Positions 940 through 61,880 of a stretch of 64,000 nucleotides of DNA are shown piece by piece. This DNA comes from Eledone cirrhosa (lineage: Eukaryota). The position numbers and the translations under genes are program-made. The DNA is taken from contig OZ024741.1 in the NCBI GenBank assembly GCA_964016885.1, positions 80,848,001 through 80,912,000 of the forward strand, written 5' to 3'. Numbering within the stretch: the first letter of the stretch is position 1; the number at the start of each line of letters is the position of its first letter. Below the pieces are notes generated by a model, which saw only the letters and a list, made by a program, of their open reading frames with translations, was not told where the DNA came from and made no database searches.

Positions 940-3900
940 ACTTATGCTTATTCATTTTTGGGGCCCTTTCTGCCCGTGTGTTTGTTTGTTTATGTGTGTC
1001 CGTATACAGCGTGGTGATAATGCCACACAAGGGCCAAGTGGGATGGCGGATCCACAGATGGCTATGTAAACATACATTCGCCAATCCTCGATAAGAGTGT
1101 TTAAATATCGAACATAAACAGTTCGAATAACGGTGAAATGGAGACTAGAACGTCATGTGACAGACTCTCACCCAACAGGTGCCCCCTGGCTCAGCAGCAG
1201 GAACCTGACTGTCAACCAAATACTGCTGATGTTGGAGGAAGAAGAAGAAGGAAAGGGGCCAGAACCAACTGGACGAAAGAATTGAATAGAACTGTTATGC
1301 AATGCTACCTGAAAAGTAACCCCAAGGAGAGGGGCTACAGGAGACGGATGCATAACATCTGGAACGAGATTGGTTTATTTAAATTAGATGAACAAAAATT
1401 GGCCGGGCAGGCTCGGGTAATAAGAACTAATGGGTGGATAAGCGAGCTGGAACTGGAGGAACTGAGCAGAGAGAATGGCTTGGAGATGGCGGGTGTAGTA
1501 TGCCAGACAAGCGAGCCGGCGGGAAATGAAGGTGAGGAGGTCCTGAGAACGGAGGAACCACCCGAAGCAGACAATGATCTGAATACTGAGATAAATAATA
1601 CCTGGAACAGAGATACGGCCACTGAGGAGATGAATGCTGACGGGCTAGGACAAGATTCGGTTGACATCCTAAATTTAGTGGTAGATGAGTTGAACAATGA
1701 TAGTGGGAGACCTATGAACCTAAGATTTGTAGACAGGAAAAAGTTAAAAGAAACAACAGCTAAGGTAAACAAAGTCATCCCATACCTTGAGGCGAGGAGT
1801 CTTCACCAGTGCAACAATATCCTCAAAGCAACAGCAAATACGGTGAGGAAACTACTTGGTATAAAAGCGAGAGGAAACAACAGACAAGAAAGAGCAGAGC
1901 CGTGGTGGAAGAAGCGACTGAGTGGGCAAATCGGGGAAATGAGAAATGACATAGGAAAGCTTGAGTCACTACTGAATGGGACACTAAAAAACATAGGCAC
2001 TAAAAATAGACTGGAAATAAAATACAAAACTAGGAGTAAAAAGCTAAATATTATCATAGAGGAATTGAAGCAACGCATTGTAGCAAAGAGTGCCAAAATC
2101 AGGCGATACGAGAACAGAGTCAGTCAGTATAAACAGAACCGCATGTTCGACAACAACCAGAAGATGCTGTTTGGACAGCTTGAGGGGAAAGAAAGAGGCA
2201 ACGACTTGATCCCTGGGGCGGAACAAGCTAAAACATTCTGGAAAGGAATATGGGAGCAGGATGTTAGACACAATGCCCAGGCAGGGTGGATTGAGACAGT
2301 ACAGAGGGAGATCGGTGAGCAGGCACAGCAACAGACTGATTTGAGTATCACAGTTGAAACTCTTAAGGGGCAAGCCAAAAAACTAACCAACTGGAAATCA
2401 CCAGGCCCAGATGGTGTGCAGGGGTATTGGATTAAACATTTAACATCCCTCCACCCGAAGCTGACGGCCATGTTCAATGACTGCTTGGTGTCGGGTGAGG
2501 TGCCAGAGTGGTTGACAAAAGGTACCACAGTTCTGATAATGAAAGACCGAATCAAGGGTAATGATGTTACCAACTATAGACCTATCACATGTCTGCCCGT
2601 AATGTGGAAACTGTTGACGAGCATTGTGTCTGAGGAAATCTACCATCACCTCCACACAAACAACTTGTTGCCGGACGAACAGAAAGGATGCCGAAAGAAG
2701 TCACGTGGTACAAAAGACCAGTTGCTTATTGATAAGATGGTAATGGGGAATTGCAGGAGGAGACACACTGATCTTGCCATGGGATGGATAGACTACAGAA
2801 AGGCATTTGACATGGTGCCTCATTCCTGGATCACCAAAAGCCTGGAGATCTTCAGGGTGGCAGATAACATCAGACAGTTGCTGGGCAGGAGTATGGGGTC
2901 CTGGGAGACAGAGTTGACATCAACTGGAGTATCCTTGGGAAGCGTGAAGATCAAGAGAGGTATCTTCCAGGGAGATAGCCTGTCCCCTCTGTTGTTTGTC
3001 CTTGCCCTGATGCCCTTGACCATTATGCTGCGAAAAGTGAGAGCAGGATACAAGTTGGGAAGGGGAGAGCTTACCATCAATCACCTCCTCTTCATGGACG
3101 ATCTTAAGCTCTTCGGGAAAAGTGAGAAGGAGTTGGATGTGCTTGTTGACACTGTCCGTATTTTCAGCAGTGATATATGTATGCAGTTTGGTATTGGTAA
3201 ATGTGGAGTCATTGTGATGAGGAGGGGTAGGTTGAGCAGAAGTAACGGGATCCAGATACCAACAGGTGAGATGATAAAGGAAATTGACTCTGAGGAAGGA
3301 TACAAGTATTTGGGCGTTCTGGAGGCTGATGGCATAAAGAACAAAAAAAATGAAGGAATTGTTAAGAACTGAATACATTCGGAGAGTAAGGAGCGTATTG
3401 AAGTCACATCTGAACAGCAGAAATGCCATAAGCTCAGTAAATTCCCGAGCTGTGTCTATTATTAGGTACAGTGCGGGAATTCTGAGATGGAATGTTGCTG
3501 AACAAAAAGAAATGGATAGGAAGACTAGGAAGCTATTGACTATCTACAACATGTTCCACAAGAGGAGTGATGTCGATAGACTCTACCTAAGGAGATCTGA
3601 GGGTGGAAGAGGTCTTATCAGCATAGAGGACTGTGTTCAGATGGAGAAAAACAACCTATACAAATACGTGACCTATAGTAAGGAGCCAATGCTCAGAGCT
3701 GTACTGAAGGAGGGGACAGTAGGCCAGGGGATACCCAAGGAGGAAATAACATCAAGGAGGAAGAGCAGCCTTAAGGGAAAATCCCTTCATAGTACCTTCT
3801 TTGAGAAAACTGAATTTAGAGATCCACAGACATGGAACTGGTTGAGAAGAGGAGACCTCAAAAAGGCTACAGAAGGAATGCTAATGGCTGCGCAGGAGCA

Positions 3901-36681: not shown

Positions 36682-36748
<67 letters not shown>

Positions 36749-36957
36749 TATGTATACGTACATACATATATGTATACAGACGTACAGTAGTATGTATATA
36801 TATACATACATGCACATATATATATATGCACGTATCGGTTTACCAAACATTTATTATAATGCTCGGTTTGTTTGTTTGTAAACAAACAAACAGCCCGAAT
36901 TACGCCGTACAGTGTTTAGGCAACCACGTCACCTTTTTGTTCAACACTGACACAGGA

Positions 36958-37000
36958 ACGATGTACTAGTTTCAAGCTTATTAGCTATCGTCAGCATCGT
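36958..37000 (-). ncRNA. Minimal hammerhead ribozyme, family C
   Basis: Minus strand: acgatg CTGACGA tagctaataagctt GAAA ctag TA catcgt. Confidence 0.88.
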
Positions 37001-37653
37001 ATACCTTCCTGCCAGATGGTTGAACGTCTGAAAGTATATACTTTACTTATGCATATTAACGGCTGAGCAGCCTAATTTGCATATCGAGTGAGTTCAGTCG
37101 GCCGGGCACACCGAAAACGATAAATGGAATAGAATGAAACGAAATTTTATTTCTCACTCTTAGTACGGCACTTACTTAAATGTAAGTATGTATACGTACA
37201 TACATATATGTATACAGACGTACAGTAGTATGTATATATATACATACATGCACACGTATATATATGCACGTATCGGTTTACCGAACATTTATTATAATGC
37301 TCGGTTTGTTTGTTTGTAAACAAACAAACAGCCCGAATTACGCCGTACAGTGTTTAGGCAACACGTCATCTTTTTGTTCAACACTGACACAGGAATATGT
37401 GTGCATGTATGTATATATATACATACTACTGTACGTCTGTATACATATATGTATGTACGTATACATACTTACATTTAAGTAAGTGCCGTACTAAGAGTGA
37501 GAAATGAAATTTCGTTTCATTCTATTCCATTTACCGTTTTCGGTGTGCTCGGCCGACTGAACTCACTCGATATGCAAATTAGGTTTCTCAGCCGTTAATA
37601 TGCATAAGGAAAGTATATACTTTCAGACGTTCAACCATCTGGCAGGAAGGTAT

Positions 37654-37696
37654 ACGATGCTGACGATAGCTAATAAGCTTGAAACTAGTACATCGT
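37654..37696 (+). ncRNA. Minimal hammerhead ribozyme, family C
   Basis: acgatg CTGACGA tagctaataagctt GAAA ctag TA catcgt. Confidence 0.88.
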
Positions 37697-37803
37697 TCCT
37701 GTGTCAGTGTTGAACGTTAAGACCCTCTTCCTACTATATGAGGCGTTAACCTAATATATCCCTTCCAGATACTGTACCGATTGTGTTGTTATTTCTGTTT
37801 ACC

Positions 37804-37911
<108 letters not shown>

Positions 37912-38977: not shown

Positions 38978-39019
<42 letters not shown>

Positions 39020-39100
39020 TTATTCCGGGTTAAATCGGGGGTAACCACAGTAAGTAAGGTACTCAATACATAGCAGAGTATAAATGTTTTAATATAGAAA

Positions 39101-39151
39101 AGCTTCTACAGGACTAGAACTGTTTCATTCGTGAGAAATCATCAGGAAGCT
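39101..39151 (-). ncRNA. Hammerhead ribozyme, family B
   Basis: Minus strand: agcttc CTGATGA tttctcacgaat GAAA cag ttctagtc ctg TA gaagct. Confidence 0.8.
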
Positions 39152-39198
39152 TCCTGATGATTCCTCACGAATTAAACAGTTCTAGTCCTGTAGAAGCT
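39148..39198 (+). ncRNA. Hammerhead ribozyme, family B, core mutated (GAAA to TAAA)
   Basis: agcttc CTGATGA ttcctcacgaat TAAA cag ttctagtc ctg TA gaagct. Confidence 0.65.
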
Positions 39199-39206
39199 TT
39201 TCTATA

Positions 39207-39498: not shown

Positions 39499-39599
<101 letters not shown>

Positions 39600-39816
39600 A
39601 TACTTGGGGAGGGTCATATTTATGTAATATTGCCAGAATTAATAACAGAACACACTCACTGTTTGGTTGGTTTTCGCTTTTCGCGAAAAGTGAAAACCAA
39701 CAACCAAACAGTGAGTGTGTTCTGTTATTAATTCTGGCAATATTACACAAATATGACCCTCTCCAAGTATAACAATATTAGTTTCGACACACGATTTCAT
39801 ATAAAAAACCTCGCAA

Positions 39817-39881
<65 letters not shown>

Positions 39882-42899: not shown

Positions 42900-43267
42900 G
42901 TGATGCATCTGATAAAATTTGGTCCGAACGAACTACCCGTGTCTGAAAGAACCTGCAGCCGTAGAATCAGCCAGATCCATACAGGGACCATGTCTCGAGC
43001 TAACTGCCGGCGAAATGTCCGAAGCAAAGGCACCTGCTTCTTTGTCAATACAAGAAGATGGGAAGGGAAAGCCATGCCTACTTGACCAGCAGATAGTAGC
43101 AGACATGGTCAAAGGAATGCCAACATTATCGCCTCAACATTTAGAAGAGGAACACGCTTCAGTTGCTTGTAAGCAACTGAACACGCCTGGCGTCACAAAC
43201 GTCACATGTATCCACACACAGAGGGAAGAATGTGTAGCAAATACTAACACCTCCACAAACCACCACC

Positions 43268-43342
<75 letters not shown>

Positions 43343-46300
43343 CAATAAATGAGAACAACAACAATACAACAAAAGGAATCAGCGGCAACACAAAGAATGA
43401 GACCATCATCATCACCAACAACAACAATAACAAAATTTCATTTGCACAACCGTTGCTAAGCAACAGGATTTTGAATATTACCCCATGGACATTTCCCAAA
43501 AGCCCCAATATTTCCCACATACCCCCACAAGTAAGAGAAATGACACAGAAAAAGAAACTGATATACAGAACAGTTGATATCATTACCAAAAAAACCATAA
43601 CGCTCCCAACAATCACTATTGAAGCTGCACTAAAAGATATCAAGCCAGACGTGGCATACCTCCAAAGAGGTAAACAGTATGGAAGTGTGTCAGTGCTCTT
43701 TAAGAGCGAAACTCTGGCTCAAAAACACTCGATTTACCCAATAAAAACGGATCAACACATCTTCTTGGGAAGAAGATCCTACAAAATATAATAACCAGGA
43801 TCCCAGCAGAGGTCAACATTTGGTGGATCCTACGCTGCATCCTGAAGAAGGATGAGGACACCCTCCTATCTGTAGACAGGACAGACCGGAATAACTGGTT
43901 TGGAACCTGCATCGAGGTTCTGGTACACATGAGGCCAGAGAGAGTTGAGAAAATCCCGAACAGGATCGTCCTTGAGGAAGATGTCATCTCCATTTTAGTG
44001 GAGGGGAAAAGACCTCAGTGCCATAAGTGTGAGAAAAAAAACCGAGGACAAACAAGGTGTTATTACCAACACCAAAACCCCAACATCAACACCCCAAACC
44101 GTACACAATACAAAAACCTGCAACATCCACTCCCACACCACCACAGACCAGAGACAACCACACACACAAAATCCCACTGAAAAACCCTCCATTTCCTCCT
44201 CCCTCCCTGTCAAATACTTCCACAAACACCTCTACAAACACTCCACCACACAACATACCCCTCCCATCTACCCATGATTCAGAAGTCTCAGACACGGGAA
44301 CCTCTACATCTCCAAGTGAGAATGAAGAGGAACCCCAAAAATCCAAAAAACAAAAAAAGAGACAAAAAAAAAACAACACAAAAACATAAACATCTACAGA
44401 AAACACGCACACACCCAACCCCACCACAAACGACAAACACACCAACAACACAATCACCACCAACACAACCAAACACTTCACCAACAAAACAAACACCCAC
44501 ACCACCACAATCACAAACCCCAACCACAAAAAGAAAACTACAAACAGAAACAGTACACATAAAAACAAAACACATTACACATACATAAAAACAACAAACA
44601 AAGAACTAGTAGAAACCCTCCGAAAGGACCCTAATATCCAAACGGAAGGGAAAACTTTCCCCACCAACGACCCACCTCCAAACCTCAAACTGATCAGGGT
44701 AACAACCCTACAACATGAAACATTGAAAGGGACCTTCCCACATGATGTGGGCCCCCCTTGCCAAAAACTCCTTAACCGTGTCCTGCTGAAAGGATTCTCT
44801 CCCTCACCAAACACACCCAATCTGGACATGGAGATCGAACAATCCTTTTCTCTCCCTAACTCTTCTTCACCAACATGGCGACTATACAAGTTGGATGTTT
44901 GAATGTACGTGTCCTGAGCATGCCCTGGGAACAGGGCCATCTTTTAAATGATCTCAGGTCACATTGTATAGATGTGATAGCCATCACCGAGTCCAGGATT
45001 CACGACAAGCAGCAGCCAAACCCCATGTTCGATGACTTTGAGATCGACGCCTCTCTGTCAGCCAGGAGGTGGAGGGGGAGTTGTTGTTCTGTTTGGAAAA
45101 AAACTTGGATCTCAAAGCACAGACGATTCACTTGGACCTGGGGGGCAGCTTGATGGTCCTGGACGTGAATGGTAGTGAAGGTGGAGCTTTCAGACTGGTG
45201 GACGTATATGCCCCGACTGGGACATCGCGACGAGAGTTCTTCAAGCGTCTGAAGCCATTAATGGGAACGTCTCGCTCCTTAGTGTTAGCGAGGGACTGGA
45301 ATGGCATCTTAGATGCACGTTGGGACTATGTAGGAGATTGTGATAAATGAGGGGCCTAAAAAATCTCATCAGCCAATTCCAACTGGCTGATAGATATCGA
45401 CTAGACTTCCCAAGTGTACCACTGTGGACGTGGAGCAACCGGACTGGGTTTCTAGATCGTATTTACATAGATTTTTAATTAGACAGAATGATAAGGAAAC
45501 ATTAAGCTGTCCACAAATGCACATGGATGCCTATTCAGACCACAAATAGTCACCTGCGTAGTCAACCTTGATAGAACACATAGACAGGGACCCGGATACT
45601 GGAAGCTAAACATGTCGCTTCCGGCGCGTAAGGCCTACAGTAAACGGATTAGCACCTTAGTTAAGTGCCAGTTGACGGGGGAGATCGTCAACAACAGGTG
45701 GTGAAGCTCGCTCAAGAGAGCAATTATAATAGAATCGATAGCATTTAGCAAGGAAGTAGCTTTAGAAAAAAACAAAACGTGCTAGCGGCGAGAACGGCAC
45801 TAGACCAGTTCTTCAACGTGAAACACGAAGTTTGTATTGTCAGAAGTAGAACACGTGTTCTAAGAAACGAGGGAGCCAAAGCTGTTAGCTGGGCCCGAGT
45901 GGCAAAGGCGAAAAGTGGCAAGAAATCCACGATTCGGTCTTTGCAAGACAACGATAGACGCATTATACTTGAATCCAAGCAGATGTGCACTGCCTTCCAG
46001 CAGCATTTTGCACAACTGTTCGAGAAAAGCAGTACGTCAAGGGAGGTGATGGACTTCAGCTCCTACCTCGACGGCATACTACGACTCTCGAGTACGGATG
46101 CAGAGAGTTGCGAAAGGCCGATCACAGCGGGCGAAATAGAAGATGCCCTAAGCCGCTGCAGGAAACGCAAATCACCCGGTTTAGATGATCTACCCTATGA
46201 GTTTTACATAGGCATGCCAGACTTGTTCTCTGGCGTCCTCGAAGCGGACTACTGCAACTGGCAGCAGAACGGGAGGATTCCCAGTTCTGTAGGCAGAGGC

Positions 46301-48480
46301 GTAGCAACGCTGATCAGGAAAGATGAAAACAGGGGGGATGAGACAAGAAATTTCAGGCCCATAACTCTGCTCAACACAGAGTTAAAGATTTTGGCCAAGG
46401 TGTTAGCAGCGAGGCTGCCGCTTGTCGTCGAGAACCTGGTAGGGGAAGCGCAAACGTGTGCAATCCAGACCAGATCCATACACGACAACCTCCACCTCAT
46501 GCGATACATCATAGAGAGGGTAGGGTGTAAACTTGGCTTCGGTGGGGCTCTGATCAATTTAGATCAGTCTAAGGAATTTGATAGGGTCGACCATCAATAC
46601 TTGGAAGCGGTTCTCAAGGCGGCCGACTTCAGAGGCTGGATCGCTGCTATGCACACCAGCATCTGCTATGCACACCAGTCAAGGTGAATGGCTACCTATC
46701 TGAGCCATTCCAAATCATGCGTTCCATCCGTCAGGGGTGCCATCTCTCCTCCATTCTGTATGTACTGACTCTCGAGCTATTACTGCGGAAGTTGGAGCTG
46801 TTGCAGGGCATCCCGATCGAACCAGGACTGCGGAAAGAAGCGTCAGCGTATGCCGATGACATAACCGTAAGGGTGTCGAAAACCTCGGACATCGGGATAA
46901 TCGGCAACCTATTGCAGGAATACGAAACGTTGACAGGAGCAAGACTAAACCGAAACAAGTCTGTCGGTTTGCAACTCGGCACATGGAGAGGCAAACCCAT
47001 GCCTCCCGACAGTGTCGTTGGACGCTGGACGGAAGGAACGGTGAAATTGCTCGGGGTCTGGTTTGGTACAGACCTCCAGGTGGACAAGAACTGGAACGAG
47101 GTCACGGCGAAGTTGTTTGCACTCAACCAGAAGTGGGCTGAGTACAAACTGCCCTTGAAAGGTCGAGCGGAGGTGCCGAACACTTATATAGCGTCCGTCA
47201 TCTACTACCGCTTGACAGTCGTGCCTTGTCTCCGCTAACACCTCACCAAAATGGAACGCCTACTCTTCAAGTTCCTCTGGAAGAAACAGGCTCCATTGGT
47301 GAGGAGATCCATCTGCTGTCAACACCCTTCTAACGGAGGGCTGGGCATGCCGTGACTGATGATGCGCAAACACGCGCTGAGGCTACGCCATCTCCAGGTA
47401 TTCCTGATCGGCGAACCAGTGTGGCTGTCGTTTGTTGGACGAGCTCTTCCACAACTCGTCTCACTAACAGAGCTGCAGTCCTGGGTCAAGCGAAGACCGA
47501 AAATGGGCGCCTGGCACCTCGAGTGCCTTCAGGCGCTCACAGCCCTCTACCAAGCGGAAACGGCAATCAGCGGAGACTCCACTTCGACATTCTATAGGGG
47601 ATTAGTGGAGGATAAGTGCGACGACGTTCTCGGGGAAACTCTAGGCATCGAGGAAGACGAACTGACCAGTCTGTTCAGGAGGACTTTTCGTCCAGGGCCT
47701 ATGGATAACTCCCAGAGGTTTCTGGCCTGGCAGTGCTACCGAGGAGCTCTACCAGTTCGAGACAAGATCTACAGGCACGGACGCCCTGGCAGAGATCCTA
47801 CCAAAAGGACCTGTCCAAGATGCGAGCAGGACATCGAAACCGTTCTGCACGCAATTGTTCAGTTCCCAGGGGTGACCGACCTGTGGAATTATGTCTAACA
47901 GCTACTGTCACGTATAGGACGCATCCAGTTGTCAGCCGAGTCCATGGTGAGGATCACCCCGCCGCCTTCATTTAAGAATGAAGGAGAGGCGGTCTTCTTC
48001 TGTCTGGTGGCTATGGCAAAAGAGGTAATATGGTGGACGAGGTTAAAAGGACTGAGGGCAAGCACCTTTCCCTCCGGACAGCAACTCATCCCCTTCTTTA
48101 AGTACCACTTCAGAAGGAAGGTGAGAGTGGAGAGAAAGGTGCTACACCCCAGTAAATTCGCTGATAGGTGGGTGAATGTGGCGAAAATAGCCCGAGTGAA
48201 TGGGCCTTCTCTGTATATAAACCTATAGGTTGAGGAAGATAAACAGACGGAAGACGGGAACACCTACAAAACGTGTTCCTGGTGTTGAGGGTTGTTCTAT
48301 CCACGGGGTGTAAAACAACCCCGCAGTAACGTTAGCCCCCCCCCCCTAATGGGGAATTCAATTGTTTTATTTTTATATAGTTTATTGTTATTTATCATTG
48401 TTAAAGATTTTATGTAAAATCCCCGCCGTCAGGTCTTGTAATGTCCCATTTTTGTGCGCCCCTGTGGCGAATAAAGAAAG
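42900..48480 (+). mobile_element. Tx1-like copy H, decayed, (ATCT)n tail
   Basis: ORF1 fragments 42919-44870; ORF2 fragments 44875-48228 (AYADD near 46850); 3' end gcccctgtggcgaataaagaaag + atatctatctatct. Confidence 0.88.
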
Positions 48481-48503
48481 ATATCTATCTATCTACCTAT
48501 AAA

Positions 48504-48580
48504 CTTTTATGTTAAACCCCGCCATCACACGTCTTGTAATGTCCCATTTCTTGTGCGCTCTTGTGGCAAATAAAGAAACA

Positions 48581-48635
<55 letters not shown>
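48504..48635 (+). mobile_element. Short 3'-end copy of the H family plus (ATCT)n tract
   Basis: 48504-48579 resembles ~48408-48480; (ATCT)n 48580-48635. Confidence 0.8.
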
Positions 48636-48636
<1 letters not shown>

Positions 48637-51600
48637 ACAAAAACAAAAAACCAGCAAACACTACCACAAACATACAACCACCAACACAAACAACAAAAAC
48701 ATCACAAACAAAACCCCCACCTCCTGAAAACAAAATACCTACAACAAAACGAAAGCACACACAAGCACTACAGACAAAAACAAACACAACACAAGAAAAT
48801 TACACTTACACTTACATAAACACTGAAAACAAAACACTAATGGAGACCATCACGAACGATCCTTCGGTGAAAACCGAAGGGAAAACTTTCGCCCACTCTA
48901 TTAAAAATAACAAAAAACTGAACCTAAAACTAATTAGGGTCCCTATACAAACTTATAGGTCCCTAAAAGAAACATTTGAAAAGGATGTGGGGAATTCCTG
49001 CGTGAAACCACTTAACCGCGTCCTTCTCAAATGTCTCCCCACCCCAGACACCCCCATCCCACCAGACCCCACCCCACCAAACATCTCCGTTCCCACCCCG
49101 CCGGAAACCACCACCCACCCAGACAACCCCTCCAACACCCCCATGGAAATCGTGCAGCCTGGTTCCCAGGAGACGAAGGGTGAGTGATCTCTTTTCCTCT
49201 TTTAACTTTTCAGCACCAACATGGCCAATATAAGAGTTAGATGTGTGATCGTACGCGGCCTGGGAATGCCCTGGAAACAGGGCAAACTCTTAAACGACCT
49301 TAGGTCGCACAGTATGGATGTGGTAGCCATTTGCGAGTCCAGGATCCACAGCGAGCGACAGCTGGCCCCCATCTTCGTTGACTTTGAGATCTACGCATCT
49401 CTCTGTCAACCGGGGGTGGGGGCGGAGTTGCCGTTTTGCTGCGGAAACACATGGGCCTCGTAACACAGACGGTACATCTGGACCCGGAGGGTCGACTGGT
49501 GGTCCTAGACGTTGACGGTAGTGAAGGTGGAGCCTTCAGGCTGGTGGCCGCATATGCCCCATCCGGGACACCGCGGCCAGACTTCTTCAAACGTCTAGAG
49601 ACTTTTCTGGGAACGTCCCGCTCCTTGCTTTTAGTGGGGGACTGGAATGGAATCCTAGATGCACGTTGGGACTATGTGGGGGCATGTCCCGATAAAGGGG
49701 GGTGTAACAACCTCAAACAGTTAATCGACCGATTTGACCTGGCCGATAGATATCGACTAGATTTTCCGACTGTGCCACTGTGGACGTGGACTAATCGTAG
49801 CGGAACATCTAGATCGTACCTAGATAGGGTTCTAGTTAGAAATAAAGATAGGGACATGTTAAGCTGTCCACAAATGTTCATGGTTGCCTATTCAGATCAC
49901 AAACTAGTGACCTGCATGGCCAACCTTGATAGAACCCATAGACAAGGACCCGGCTACTGGAAGCTGAACTTGTCGTTACCGACAAGCAAAGCCTACAGTA
50001 GACTTTAGTTAAACAGCACTTGACAGGGGCCATTGTCAACAACAGATGGTGGTACTATCTCAAAAGGGCAGTTAGATTAGACTCGTTAGTTTTTAGAAAA
50101 GAATTAGCGTTAGATAGAAATAGAACCGAGAAGGAACTGGTAGATAAAGTAGAAGAGGCAATTAGAAGTGGCAACGTAGCCAGCGTGCTAGCAACGAGAA
50201 CGGCCTTGGACCAGTTCTTCGACGCAAAGCACGAAGGCTGCGTTGTCAGAAGCAAAATACGTGCTCTGGGAAACGAGGGAGCCAAAGCTGTTAGCTGGGC
50301 CCGAGTGACGGAGGAAAAAAGTGGCAACAAGTTCACGATTCGGTCTTTGAAGGACCAAAACGGACGCGTGATACGTGAGCCGAAGCAGATGTGTGCGGCC
50401 TTTCAGCGGCACTTTGCTCAACTGTTCGGGCCGGGCGGCGCGCCGGGAGGGGCTATGGATTTCGGTCCATACCTCGACGGCCTACCGCGACTCTCGGACA
50501 GCGAGGCAAAGTTCTGCGAAAAGCCGATTTCAGCCGCTGAAATCTCCAGGTCTCGACGGTCTACCCTACGAATTTTAGGTAGCAATGCCTGACTTATTCT
50601 CCGGTCTCCTGGAAGCGGTCTACTGCAACTGGCAACAGAACGGGAGAATTCCCAGTTCTGTAACCGGGGGCGTGGTCACACTAGTCAGGAAAGACGAGAA
50701 TAAGGGGGATGACATAGGCAACTTCCGGCCCATAACTCTGCTAAACAAAGAGTTACAGATTTTGGCCATGGTGTTGGCAAAGAGGCTGGCGCTTGTCGTC
50801 GAGAACCTGGTGGGAGAAGCGCAGACATGCGCAATCCCGACCAGGTCCATACACGACAACCTCCACCTCATGCGATACATCATAGAGAGGGTAGGGTGTA
50901 AACCCGGCTTCGGTGGGGCCCTGATCAACTTCGATCAGTCTAAGGCTTTCGATAGGGTTGACCATCGTTACCTGGATGCGGTGCTCGAGGCGGCAGGCTT
51001 CGGACCCGTGTTCAGGGGCTGGATTGCTGCAATGCACAACAGCAACATCTGCTCAAGGGTCATGGTGAACGGCTACCTCTCGGAGCCGTTCCATATCGCG
51101 CGATCCATTCAACAGGGATGCCCTCTCTCCTCCCTTCTGTACGTACTGACTCTCGAGCCACTACTGCGGAAGTTGGAGCTATTGCAGAGCATCCCTCTGG
51201 AACCGGGACTGCGAAAAGCGGCGTCGGCCTACGCCGACGACGTGACAGTAATGGTGTCGAACGCCTCGCAAATCGAGGAAGTCGGCACCTTACTGAAGGA
51301 ATACGAAAGTTTCACAGGAGCGAAGCTGAACCGGGACAAGTCCATCGGTTTGCAACTCGGATCGTGGAGAGGCAAACCGATGCCTTCCGATGGCGTCGTC
51401 GCACGCTGGACGGAAGGACCGGTAAAGCTGCTCGGGGTCTGGTTTGGTCCGGACCTCCAGGTGGAGAAGAACTGGAACGAAGTGACGGCCTAGGAGTTTG
51501 CACTCACCCAGAAGTGGGCCGAGTGCAAACTATCCTTGAAAGGTCGAGCGGAGGTGGCGAACACTTTTATAGCTTCCGCCATCTACTACCGCTTGACCGT

Positions 51601-52848
51601 CGTGCCTTGTCCAGCCAAAACGCTCTCCAAAATGGAGCGCGTGCTCTTCCAATTTCTTTGGAAGAAGCGGGCTCCTTTGGTGAGAAGATCCATCTGCTGC
51701 CAACACCCTTCTAACGGAGGGCTGGGGATGCCGTGGTTGACGATGCGCAAACACGCGCTCAGGCTGCGGCATCTCTACGTATTCCTCACCGGACAACCGG
51801 TGTGGGTCCCGTTCGTGAGGCGAGCCTTCCCACGACTCGTATCGCTGACCGAGCTGCAGTCCTGCGTCAAGCAAAGACCGAGGAAAATGGGCGACTGGCA
51901 CATCGAATGTGCTCAGGCGCTCACAGCCCTCTGGCAGGCGGACCCGGCGATCAGTGGAGACTCCACTTCGTCATTCTATAGAGGGTTGATCCGCAGCAAG
52001 TGCGACGACGCACTCGGTGAAACTCTAGGCGTAGAGGAAGATGAACTGGCCAGTCTGTTCGGTAGGACCTTCCGCCCGGGACCGATGGACAACTTCCAAA
52101 AGTCCTTGGCCTGGCAGTGCTACCGAGGAGCTCTACCAGTTCGAGACAAGCTCTACAGACATGGGCGCCCGGGCAGGGACCCTACAAAAAAGATCTGTCC
52201 GAGGTGTGTGCGTAACGAAGAAACCGTCGCGCACGCATTAATACACTGCCCGAGCGTCACTGACTTGTGGGGCTATGTAGAACGACTATTGTCATGGGTG
52301 GGACCAATCCGGTTGACCACCGAGTCCATTGTCATGATCAAACCGCCACCCTTTTCAAAAACGAAGGAGAGGCGGTTTTCCTTTGTGTGATAGCTATGGC
52401 GAAAGAGGTTGTATGGTGGACAAGGTTGAAACGGCTGAGGTCAGACACCTTTCTCTCCGGCCAACAACTGATTCTTTTTTTCAAATACCACTTTGGAAGA
52501 AGAATCAGGATGGAGAGTGAGGTGCTGTACCCCAGCAAGTTTTATGAAAGGTGGGTGAAAGTGGCGAGAATGGCCCGAGTGAATGGGCCTTCTCTCTATA
52601 TCAGCCTGTAGGTTGAGGAAAAGGAGGAGGAGAGGAAGGAGTACAAACTCTTCGTACTCCTGGAGATGAGGGTTTCACATTTTTTCGGGGGTATGTGTTA
52701 CCCATATGAACTGTCTCCCCCTATTGGGGAAAATCGACTAATTTTTTAAATTGCATTTGTGATAACATTTTACACGTTTTTATTGTATGTAAACTTTCCC
52801 CTTTGTATTTGTCCCCTTCTTTTGTGCCCCTGTGGCTAATAAAGAAAC
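48636..52848 (+). mobile_element. Tx1-like copy I, 5'-truncated in ORF1, (ATCT)n on both flanks
   Basis: ORF1 C-terminus to 49187; ORF2 fragments 49221-52611 with APE and RT motifs; 3' end gcccctgtggctaataaagaaac + atatct. Confidence 0.88.
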
Positions 52849-57196: not shown

Positions 57197-58121
57197 TGGC
57201 GTGGATATTTTTGCATATATTCTAGCCATTAGAAAAAGCAGAAATGAATGCTTCACATTCGAAAAAGGGATGACTCAACAAGAAGAAGGTGGTATGAAAC
57301 ATTGGCCCAAAGGGCTATGAGACTGAACCTGAAACCACACATGTGTGATGCGAACTTTCAAACCGCATATCCATGACTCTTGTAGAATGAGACAAACAAA
57401 CTTTAAGAAATAAAACATTACGTACCGATCGTTTTTATCAGAAAATTACACAAGAAAACAATAGTAATAAACTATAGTCCATTAGCTGAGATGCTAACGA
57501 GATTGCAGCTAGCTTAATTATATACAGAAGGAGTAAAGTGCTAACAGTACGCAATTCGTATATCACCTTTAATTATCAGAGAACAGAATTAATTTACTCA
57601 TGAATCCGCCCACTAGACCTGTCAACCTTACTAAAAGTCAATTAGATATACTTGCCCCAAAACATTTTAAGCAAAATAACTATCAAAATTTAAGAAACGT
57701 TTCATGTTTATATTATCAGAGATAAAGTGATTCAATCGCATCAATAATTATAAACTACAATATAAATTTCTCCAGCTTGATATTATAGACTATCGTCCTT
57801 CAATTATTAAATCTACTTTCAAAGCATTAACTTTCCCCTGAGTGAATCCGACTTAAATGCCATTATGCATGGAAGGAAATCGCTATTCTCTTTTGAAAAC
57901 AACCTGTGCGAGCAAACGAAAATGACAATTCTTCCTTTGATAATAGCAAAGGTTTAAAGGAACTGGTTTATGAAATAATTTGTCTTTATCCCATGAATCT
58001 GATATGTATTAAATAACATTTTTTCAGTGTTGCCTATAGCACGATAAACTTCGTTGTGTATAGGAAGAACACATGTAAACACATTATATTATTCTCTACG
58101 TACAAAGAAAACCTTAAGATA

Positions 58122-58168
58122 ATGCCATTCCGTGTTTCACAGCTAATTGGCTGTTCATCAGAAAAGAA
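58122..58168 (-). ncRNA. Degenerate hammerhead motif
   Basis: Minus strand: CTGATGA acagc caatta gctgt GAAA cacg GA; perfect stem II but U16.1 lost and stem I poor. Confidence 0.45.
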
Positions 58169-58323
58169 GTAATATATTCTTCCACTTACTGATGCAATTG
58201 CGTTGTCAAACGAATGCACTTTATGCGAATTAAACAGGCCATTTCATTCAAGATGTAGTTTGTCTTTGACAGCGGAGTGCCATGAATTCTCTTATGGAGA
58301 AAAAACATGTTGATGCATAGCTG

Positions 58324-58403
<80 letters not shown>

Positions 58404-58433
58404 GAGAGACGGTTTTATTCTACATCCCTATTT

Positions 58434-58510
58434 TATTCATTATACGTATTTCGACGAAGATGTAAGGTAGTTATATAATAACTGCCTTACACATTCTCGT
58501 CAGACAAACA
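58434..58510 (-). ncRNA. Hammerhead ribozyme, family D
   Basis: Minus strand: tgtttgt CTGACGA [long hairpin] GAAA tacgta TA atgaata. Confidence 0.85.
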
Positions 58511-58575
58511 TACAAACGAAATATAATATTCTGTTGATGTGTTATTCACCTCGCCGACCAATACACATATGTAAA

Positions 58576-58649
58576 TGTTTGTCTGAAGAGAACGTGTAAG
58601 GCAGTTATTATATAACTACCTTACATATTCGAAATACATATAACGAATA
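58576..58649 (+). ncRNA. Hammerhead ribozyme, family D
   Basis: tgtttgt CTGAAGA gaacgtgtaaggcagtta..taactaccttacatattc GAAA tacata TA acgaata. Confidence 0.85.
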
Positions 58650-58884
58650 ATATAGGATGTACAAATAAAACCGTCTCTCTTATTTATTGTAATAAAAGAC
58701 CGGCGGATGAACAAAATCGTGGAGTACTTCACGTCTGTTAAAGACTAAGTCGGCAGATTTTTAATCAACCAACTTTCTTCAATTGAATAAGTATCCATTG
58801 TAGAACAATCGTTTCAGAGAGCATAAATGTTAATGGATGTTATCTAACTCCATATCATTCGCCTTGAAAAAACACATCCACTCT

Positions 58885-58927
<43 letters not shown>

Positions 58928-58966
58928 ATATATGTATATATATATTTAATATAGATCATCAGGAGA

Positions 58967-59016
58967 GCTTTCCTGATGATTTCCTTCGAATGAAACAGTT
59001 CTAGTCCTGTAGAAGC
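58967..59016 (+). ncRNA. Hammerhead ribozyme, family B (element extends to ~59095)
   Basis: gctttc CTGATGA tttccttcgaat GAAA cag ttctagtc ctg TA gaagc; downstream sequence matches the reverse complement of ~39020-39100. Confidence 0.8.
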
Positions 59017-59621
59017 CATTTCTATATTAAATATTTATACTCTGCTATATATTGAGTACCTTACGTACTGTGGTTACTCCTGATTGAACCCGGGATGCAC
59101 ACACACACACATATATATATATATGCTGTGTCTGTGTCTGTGTGTACACACACATAGATATAGAAAGTAAAGGAAGACAAGCAGAATACAAGCAAACATA
59201 AACACTGGAACATGCTGGTGTTCACAAACAACAGTATACCATCATCCAACACCACCACAACTACAACCCACAATCCACCATACACCACTACCACCATCAC
59301 CCCACCACCACGACTATCACTACCATAAAACACACCCTCCACGACTTCACGATCTACCACTAGTCACAAAAAAGAAAGAAAAACCAAAGGGAAGCTGTCC
59401 AAATGGTTGGTAGATCTGCCAGAAATAGCGGTCAAATCTCATTGGAATTAGCAACTTCAATCTAAAAATAGAAGGACACAGTGTAGTCCTACAGACGCTA
59501 TCCAGAACAAATCAATGGCTGGAATATCTTTGATTAGATGTCTGTTAGATAAGGGTTGACCGGAGGCTAGACAACAGCAACAACAAAATCATAAAATTAT
59601 TTGTATATACAGACACATACA

Positions 59622-59929: not shown

Positions 59930-61880
59930 ACCAGCCAGCCAGCCAGCCAGCCAGTCATCCAGTCAGCCAGCCAGTCAAACAAACCACCGACCACCAACTA
60001 ACAAACCAGCCAGCCAACAAATGAACACCTCCCCCAAAAAAACACCAACCAACCAACCAGCCAGCCAACCAGCAAACTGACCAACCAACCAACCAGCCAA
60101 CCAACCAACCAACCAACCAACCAACCAACCAACCAACCAACCAACCAACCAACCAACCAACCAACCAACCAACCAACCAACCAACCAACCAGCCATCCAT
60201 CAAACCGACCAACCAACCAGCCAACTAACCAAGTAGCCAGCCAACCAGCAAACCTGCCAACCATCAAATCGACCGACCGACCAACCAACCAACCAACCAA
60301 CCTGCCAACCAGCAAACCAACCAACCAACCAACCAACCTGCCAACCAGCAAACTGACCAACCAACCAACCAACCAACCAACCAACCAAGCAACCAGCAAA
60401 CCGACCGAAAACCAACCAACCAACCAACCAACCAACCAACCAACCAACCAACCAACCAACCAACCAACCAACCAACCAACCAACCAACCAACCAACCAAC
60501 CAACCAACCAACCAACCAACCAACCAGACAACCAACCAACCAACCAACCAACCAACCAACCAACCAACCAACCAACCAACCAACCAACCAGCCATCCATC
60601 AAACCGACCAACCAACCAGCCAACTAACCAAGTAGCCAGCCAACCAGCAAACCTGACAACCAGCAAATCGACCGACCGACCAACCAACCAACCAACCAAC
60701 CAACCTGCCAACCAGCAAACTGACCGACCAACCAACCAACCAACTAGCCAACCAGACAACTAACCAACCAACCAGCCAACCAGCCAACCAACCAGCCAGC
60801 CAACCAACCAACCAGCCAATTAGCAAACCAACCAGCCAACCAGCAAATCGATCCACCAACCAACTAGCCAACCAACCAACTAGCCAAACAACCAACCAAC
60901 CAGCCAACCATCCAACCAACCAACCAACCAACCAACCAACCAACCAACCAACCAACAAACCAGCCAACCAACCAACCAACCAACCAACCAACCAACCAAC
61001 CAACCAACCAACCAACCAACCAACTAGCCAACCAACCAGACAACCAACCAACCAACCAACCAACCAACCAACCAACCAACCAACCAACCAACCAACCAAC
61101 CAGCCATCACTCAAACCGACCAACCAACCAGCCAACTAACCAAGTAGCCAGCCAACCAGCAAACCTGACAACCAGCAAATCGACCGACCGACCAACCAAC
61201 CAACCAACCAACCAACCTGCCAACCAGCAAACTGACCGACCAACCAACCAACCAACTAGCCAACCAGACAACTAACCAACCAACCAGCCAACCAGCCAAC
61301 CAACCAGCCAGCCAACCAACCAACCAGCCAATTAGCAAACCAACCAGCCAACCAGCAAATCGATCCACCAACCAACTAGCCAACCAACCAACTAGCCAAA
61401 CAACCAACCAACCAGCCAACCATCCAACCAACCAACCAACCAACCAACCAACCAACCAACCAACCAACCAACCAACAAACCAGCCAACCTACTAACCAGA
61501 AAACCAACCAACCAACCAACCAACCAACCAACCAACCAACCAACCAGCCAGCCAACTATCAACCAACCAACCAGCCAACCAGCAAACCGACCGACCAACA
61601 CCAGCCAACCAACCAACCAAGCAGCCAGCCAACCAGCAAACAAACCAACCAACCAGCCAACCAACCAGCCAGCCAACCAACTAGCCAACCAACCAGCCAA
61701 CCAACCAACTTGCCAGCCAGCCAGCCATTCAACCAGCCAGCCAGCCAGCCAGCCATTCAACCAGCCAACCAGCCAACCATTCAACCAATCCAACTAATCA
61801 GCCAACTAGCCAGTCAACCAACTAACCAACCAGCCAAGCAGCCAGCAAGTTAACCATTTTGCGAGCCAACCATCCAACCA
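59930..61880. repeat. (CCAA/CCAG)n satellite with higher-order blocks
   Basis: Marker agccatc..caaaccgacc..aagtagccag recurs at 60191, 60590 and 61102. Confidence 0.92.

Follow-up and report, generated by a model that had tools for sequence, protein, structure and literature searches.

Circular RNAs are produced from the tandem hammerhead repeats of metazoan genomes (Cervera and de la Pena 2020, PMC7229834), and the candidate mobilisers of these retrozymes were said there to include LINEs and PLEs; an origin from Penelope-like elements (PLEs) has since been backed by co-occurrence and by pLTR phylogeny (Li et al. 2026, bioRxiv 10.64898/2026.07.22.740005). For one PLE protein, which is predicted to form a dimer, AT-rich DNA has been shown to be preferred and to be cut and extended on both strands; the RNA that it uses is uncleaved, and it begins copying at two internal sites, between which lies the genomic 'tail' (Frangieh et al. 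2024, PMC11167929). In genomes, PLEs leave insertions whose arms are inverted and truncated at the 5' end, with a tail that is often confined to one end and with a bias to (TA)n (Craig et al. 2021, PMC8557442); partial tandems with inverted arms are also described, and self-priming has been proposed as the source of the inversion (Arkhipova et al. 2013, PMC3846280).

The window analysed here is a 64,000-nt stretch of the Eledone cirrhosa genome (contig OZ024741.1, positions 80,848,001 to 80,912,000), and at 36745..37715 it contains a member of a non-coding hammerhead repeat family that we refer to as family A. We propose, with a probability of roughly 0.78, that family A is a non-coding hammerhead tandem repeat (a non-LTR retrozyme) mobilised in trans by a PLE protein acting on uncleaved RNA. 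Unit coordinates (u) are counted from u1, the first base 3' of the predicted GUA cut, and the locus contains the following features:

36687..36744, no strand: target tract of (TA)n, adjoining the sense arm's 3' end
36745..37395, minus strand: family A sense arm, 651 nt, from u6 to u218 of the next pass
36959..37395, minus strand: first full pass, the 437-nt unit, non-coding
36745..36958, minus strand: second, partial pass, 214 nt, stopping at the short 3' end site of family A
36939..37025, minus strand: type I hammerhead motif with extended helix I (called on motif, fold and family conservation)
37120..37179, minus strand: 'tail' of ~60 nt, bounded by the 3' end sites termed short (u~221) and long (u~281)
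37395..37715, plus strand: family A inverted arm, 321 nt, u142 to u25
37629..37715, plus strand: second hammerhead motif, core at +37660, same sequence as the first
37713..37807, plus strand: family B, 3' end (B is a hammerhead-bearing, coding Penelope-like family); junction over AAC
37808..37908, no strand: (CA)n(TA)n(TG)n tract, following the family B piece on its 3' side

The minus arm starts at 37395 (TTCCTGTGTCAG) and lacks the 5 nt CATCG that come after the GUA triplet. Its second pass differs from the first by 4 substitutions and 1 indel, and the direct repeats are spaced by 437/438 nt. The inverted arm is 98% complementary to the sense arm (7 mismatches), and the two are joined 5'-to-5' at 37395 with a 1-nt overlap. 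The original prediction had described this layout well: the sequence agrees with a minus-strand element beginning 5 nt past the predicted cut without CATCG, the estimates of ~437 nt for the unit and ~210 nt for the second pass before a (TA)n end are close to the measured 437 + 214 nt, and the inverted partial copy with a second hammerhead lies at the 5' end as stated. The longest Met-started frame in the unit is only 47 aa, and the unit folds strongly (z = -6.9), in part owing to TA-rich palindromes. The short and long 3' end sites are both terminated by CATTTA; the minus arm has the short end, and the plus arm, for which the long end is expected, stops at u25. It is thus without u26-u281, the stretch expected in a complete long arm, and this segment was not found elsewhere in the window. 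What stands in its place, at 37713-37807, was overlooked in the original prediction: the last 94 nt of family B, overlapping the inverted arm by 3 nt, with the junction a few nt upstream of family B's own predicted hammerhead cut. A chimeric A/B subfamily was considered and rejected, the junction 20-mer matching once in the whole genome. A later truncated family B insertion that deleted the arm end and a jump between RNAs within a single event both fit.

The minus-strand hammerhead has a CUGACGA core starting at 36994, a 4-bp helix II (AGCU/AGCU), a palindromic helix III (ACUAGU) and a long helix I, with its predicted cut between 36964 and 36963; the cut of the plus-strand motif is predicted between 37690 and 37691. 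The fold of the 87-nt hammerhead region has z = -3.1 (3 of 200 shuffles as good). Rfam gives zero matches in the window at the gathering threshold, and no hammerhead family is among 109 weak Rfam matches, so the ribozyme assignment rests on motif, fold and family conservation. Comparison of 113 hammerhead regions, with the outer 24 positions fixed by the search anchors, reveals eight common substitutions, none of which hits the core; all fall in loops, bulges or the free N7, or turn A-U into G-U. Hammerheads with a short palindromic helix III are described as cutting efficiently only as dimers (PMC4209133), and we predict that the family A motif acts as a dimer in tandem copies, and that it would set the length of the RNA unit and not the ends of the DNA copies. 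Because the two hammerheads at the window locus are on opposite strands, this copy cannot release unit-length RNA by double cleavage, and with one hammerhead per strand it falls outside what Li et al. term 'active'. Two or more hammerheads are present in 13 of 81 sampled family A arms.

Family A is very abundant in the 3.0 Gb genome: a 26-mer that lies directly downstream of the cut site is found as 14,394 exact copies, and a hammerhead 31-mer across the intact predicted cut site as 15,427. The 36835-37175 segment, compared with four contig-only runs, is present in runs of three organisms, which bears on neither RNA ends nor circles. We inspected ~170 of many thousand locus records, and arms were mapped for 56 position-ordered loci on contig C1, for the 29 best-scoring loci and for 28 more. 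Several subfamilies lie side by side, with unit spacings from 437 to ~508 nt and tandem arrays of up to ~4 kb, and in 20 of 20 fetched loci that have the hammerhead without the usual downstream 26-mer we found non-coding variants and no coding subfamily. At two loci on C1 (11.82 Mb and 38.81 Mb) the tandem passes are evenly spaced (466 x3 and 508 x2 respectively), unlike the wide variation in unit length between loci.

Arms and passes of one locus have a common haplotype. At common polymorphic sites discordance is 15/887 and 0/10 for opposite arms of one locus and 35/1546 and 0/14 for tandem passes of one locus, against 25210/57575 and 1180/3898 between loci; rare alleles are held in common at 13-17% within loci and 1-1.5% between loci. 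This is consistent with one source per event, and could also reflect subfamilies active at different times or gene conversion. Divergence is 3.5-4.0% between tandem passes, 2.3-3.2% between opposite arms, and 3.7% (young) or 6.5% (others) between different loci.

The 3' end of a family A arm is either short, at u214-225, or long, at u264-281, and almost always lies in (TA)n; exact patterns recover 2,081 short and 2,310 long ends genome-wide. An inverted neighbour is present at the 5' end in 57 of 79 arms of at least 150 nt. The 56 position-ordered loci contain 34 head-to-head junctions, and every one of the 22 in which both ends can be read pairs a short with a long end; in the other 12 the ends are hidden by TA expansions, interruptions or locus edges. 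A partly independent count (7 loci in common with the 22-pair set and 12 new), taken from the pattern lists for the first 116 Mb of contig C1 with 83 short and 100 long ends, gives the same pairing in 19/19 head-to-head neighbours within 6 kb (binomial p = 1.6e-6). The window copy departs from this pairing, since family B takes the place of the plus arm's own end. It is the 3' end, and not the 5' start, that is the fixed feature of family A insertions. The PLE start site used in vitro is the same on both strands (PMC11167929), and strict pairing of short with long is therefore not predicted by that alone; we found no paper that counts PLE end pairing in the open-access literature on twin priming, non-autonomous elements and cephalopods.

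Two coding families bear on the identity of the mobiliser. Family B has what we take to be Neptune-type motifs and a weak RVT_1 match below the Pfam cut-off, and its copies have a single 3' end and almost no inverted arms (48 locus records); this anatomy differs from that of family A, there is no similarity outside the junction, and B was rejected as the parent of A. Tandem family B copies at three loci have a (CA)n/(TA)n tract placed between the terminal repeat and the 5' region of the element that comes next, so that the microsatellite looks like part of the family B unit. Family C is young and coding, ~4.8 kb long, with open frames of up to 970 aa (many exceeding 900 aa), copies at 95-99% identity and 43,797 first-look candidates. 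It presumably is Penelope-like, with motifs that we take to be RT-like, CxC..C and GIY-YIG-like, its RT and endonuclease are set apart by a long stretch of low-complexity sequence, and its tail is 100 nt; Pfam, PDB sequence and homolog-name searches gave family C no name and recognised neither domain. Like family A, it carries a hammerhead and ends in (TA)n at one of two sites, here 100 nt apart, and the four of ten loci that are readable all pair short with long. Family C was nonetheless rejected as the parent of A by sequence, there being no similarity, and comparison of family A with 16 coding loci of three families gave no sequence link. The case for a mobiliser therefore comes from anatomy only, from which we infer that the enzyme is C-like; with intact frames in the same genome, family C is a candidate.

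Fragments of C-like coding sequence are present inside 11/108 and 4/20 family A locus records, with varying position and direction. In one (L074) an endonuclease fragment lies directly upstream of family A in the same direction. Another (L189) was considered as a mixed A/C head-to-head event and is instead a family A insertion into a C-like fragment; this copy (2885-3761 of the record) is outside a microsatellite and by eye has an 8-bp target duplication. No RT + GIY-YIG reading frame was seen in the family A unit, or continuous with it, in the locus records inspected.

The position of the window arm, 5 nt from the predicted cut, had been taken in the original prediction to mark the 5' end of a self-cleaved RNA, with reverse transcription running off this end and then switching template to give the inverted arm. 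The scattered 5' ends do not support this. Of 81 arms, three have their start no more than 10 nt from a cut site, where ~4 are expected if starts are uniform, and these loci were picked for holding u6-u31, which favours cut-site starts and does not hide them. Genome-wide there are 8 breaks at u1 (the cut site itself), 8 at the upstream control u428, 16 at u6 and 26 at u10, with patterns that require three mismatches just upstream. The 8 copies broken exactly at the cut are without exception head-to-head junctions, and breaks just downstream are somewhat above the cut site itself, both of which favour run-off; however, ~15,400 copies span the cut, cut-site breaks are no commoner than nearby controls, the downstream excess is mild (at most 0.2% of copies per position), and some of the u10 matches are small deletions and not breaks. 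Mapping of 5' breakpoints against the cut site thus gave the scatter that the original prediction had itself named as evidence to the contrary, and the start of the window copy beside the cut is chance and not informative on mechanism. Sixty of the 81 arms read more than 10 nt past the cut, which means that cleaved linear monomers were not what was usually copied; 40 of 81 continue for more than 160 nt, through the rest of the unit and then the previous unit, and not into coding sequence. A template longer than a cleaved monomer, also part of the original prediction, is upheld by this read-through, and the cleaved RNA end as starting point is not. The inverted arms moreover have fixed 3' ends of their own in (TA)n, and are better explained by a second primed cDNA than by a template switch. 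Run-off at a cleaved end is largely refuted already and we regard it as very improbable.

The inverted arm could otherwise have been copied from the first arm by self-priming (fold-back), an origin proposed for Penelope (PMC3846280). The haplotype common to both arms would agree with this; 18 of the 22 pairs are nested or nearly so, and of the 22 the 5' positions are identical in 2 and within 12 nt in 2 more. In the remaining 4 pairs neither arm is contained in the other, and neither arm of those pairs is therefore a fold-back copy; most junctions are asymmetric by 30-215 nt, and folding back leaves the different fixed end sites of the two arms unexplained, all of which makes it a quite improbable origin. 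It is also improbable that what we call the family A unit is no more than a terminal repeat (pLTR) belonging to a coding Penelope-like element outside our sample, even though its insertion anatomy is the same as that of coding family C and C-like fragments occur in the locus records noted above, in L074 directly upstream and co-oriented. Against this, passage into the previous unit in half of the sampled arms (40/81) and arrays of ~4 kb show unit following unit where coding sequence would be expected, 22 free 5' flanks have nothing in common, in register, at the junction, and the coding neighbours vary in position and direction, with L189 being an insertion into a fragment.

We therefore return to mobilisation in trans by a PLE protein, which builds on what is directly observed (anatomy, copy number, two 3' ends and their pairing, scattered 5' ends and cut-site read-through). 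A Penelope-like protein would make a nick in each strand of a (TA)n tract and prime two cDNAs, which would begin one at each of the two fixed internal start sites, with multimeric or circular RNA that is uncleaved as the template. The cDNAs would differ in how far they extend, often passing the hammerhead and entering the previous unit, and they would be joined to each other 5'-to-5' with little or no overlap to give head-to-head arms. In the window copy the minus arm would have begun at the short site and stopped by chance 5 nt after the previous cut, and the plus arm would have lost its long end to the family B piece, either by a later insertion with deletion or by a template jump. The template may be a circle or a linear multimer, and the within-locus divergence figures do not separate the two. 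A more specific version, in which each insertion derives from one circular hammerhead RNA and a PLE dimer whose active sites are obliged to use different fixed starts on the two strands, is tentative and on balance doubtful. If true, family A would be an in vivo record, over thousands of events, of rolling reverse transcription on circular RNA, and would also record asymmetric twin priming.

The window contains several further elements next to (TA)n tracts. At 39016-39205 there is a head-to-head stub of another family with a hammerhead motif, lying between (TA)n tracts and with unequal arms; a further copy is at ~58935-59145, and it recurs in many of the fetched loci. A palindromic stub at 39592-39820, also between (TA)n tracts, has 78-nt arms (97%) and an extra stretch on one side; it has the same anatomy and is common to many loci. 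In the 58090-58680 region a hammerhead-like motif of minimal type lies at -58161, and 58400-58680 is an inverted repeat of ~140 nt, imperfect, that adjoins (TA)n. Elsewhere, 1100-33100 and 42900-52400 are dense in remnants of long open frames, up to 984 aa from stop to stop, which by eye resemble non-LTR retrotransposon proteins, and a 1.8-kb (ACCA)n array of ~449 copies with extreme strand skew is located at 60044-61837.

In its composition family A closely resembles the metazoan non-LTR retrozymes: a type I hammerhead in each unit, short non-coding tandem units of low GC found as monomers, dimers and multimers, dispersal at high copy number, and PLEs in the same genome. Placement among the metazoan tandem hammerhead repeats, as in the original prediction, is thus supported. 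The unit, at 437-508 nt, is longer than the ~300 nt given as typical in PMC7229834 but is inside the 51-972 bp range of Li et al. Most family A copies consist of 1-1.5 units and an inverted arm with fixed, paired 3' ends, and such junctions do not feature in the accessible portions of the retrozyme papers. Circular RNA has been demonstrated for the retrozymes of PMC7229834, whereas family A is described here from its DNA sequence. The retrozymes of Li et al. are linked to pLTRs by sequence; for family A no such link was found, and the family A loci inspected have no coding flank in common, in keeping with a non-coding element without LTRs.

The insertions themselves compare more closely with those of EN+ Penelope-like elements, which are described as forming partial tandems with an inverted 5'-truncated arm, as having the tail at just one end, as targeting (TA)n, and as starting at two internal sites with read-through of the hammerhead. 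Family A has the inverted truncated arm, the two 3' ends and the microsatellite or AT-rich target that characterise these insertions. It differs from them in having no open reading frame, in a hammerhead that is canonical-like with a long helix I and not minimal, and in a tail of ~60 nt as compared with 30-40 nt in print, which is a point against the PLE reading; the pairing of one short with one long end has been counted for family A and is without exception where readable. The non-autonomous Chlamys PLEs such as MRC1 are also non-coding, multicopy and arranged head-to-tail with pLTR-like ends (PMC8557442). Elements of the MRC1 type have a 3' end like that of an autonomous partner and belong to a clade described as being without canonical hammerheads (PMC8557442), whereas family A has a hammerhead and no partner was found for it among the 16 coding loci. 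That family A junctions follow Penelope rules is a different kind of evidence from the co-occurrence and phylogeny of 2026, and the strict short-and-long rule makes of a qualitative statement, that one end often lacks the tail, a constraint by which the Penelope reaction can be tested. As a class, the non-LTR retrozyme is already known; the value of family A is in the counted pairing of short with long ends and in the read-through of the cut site.
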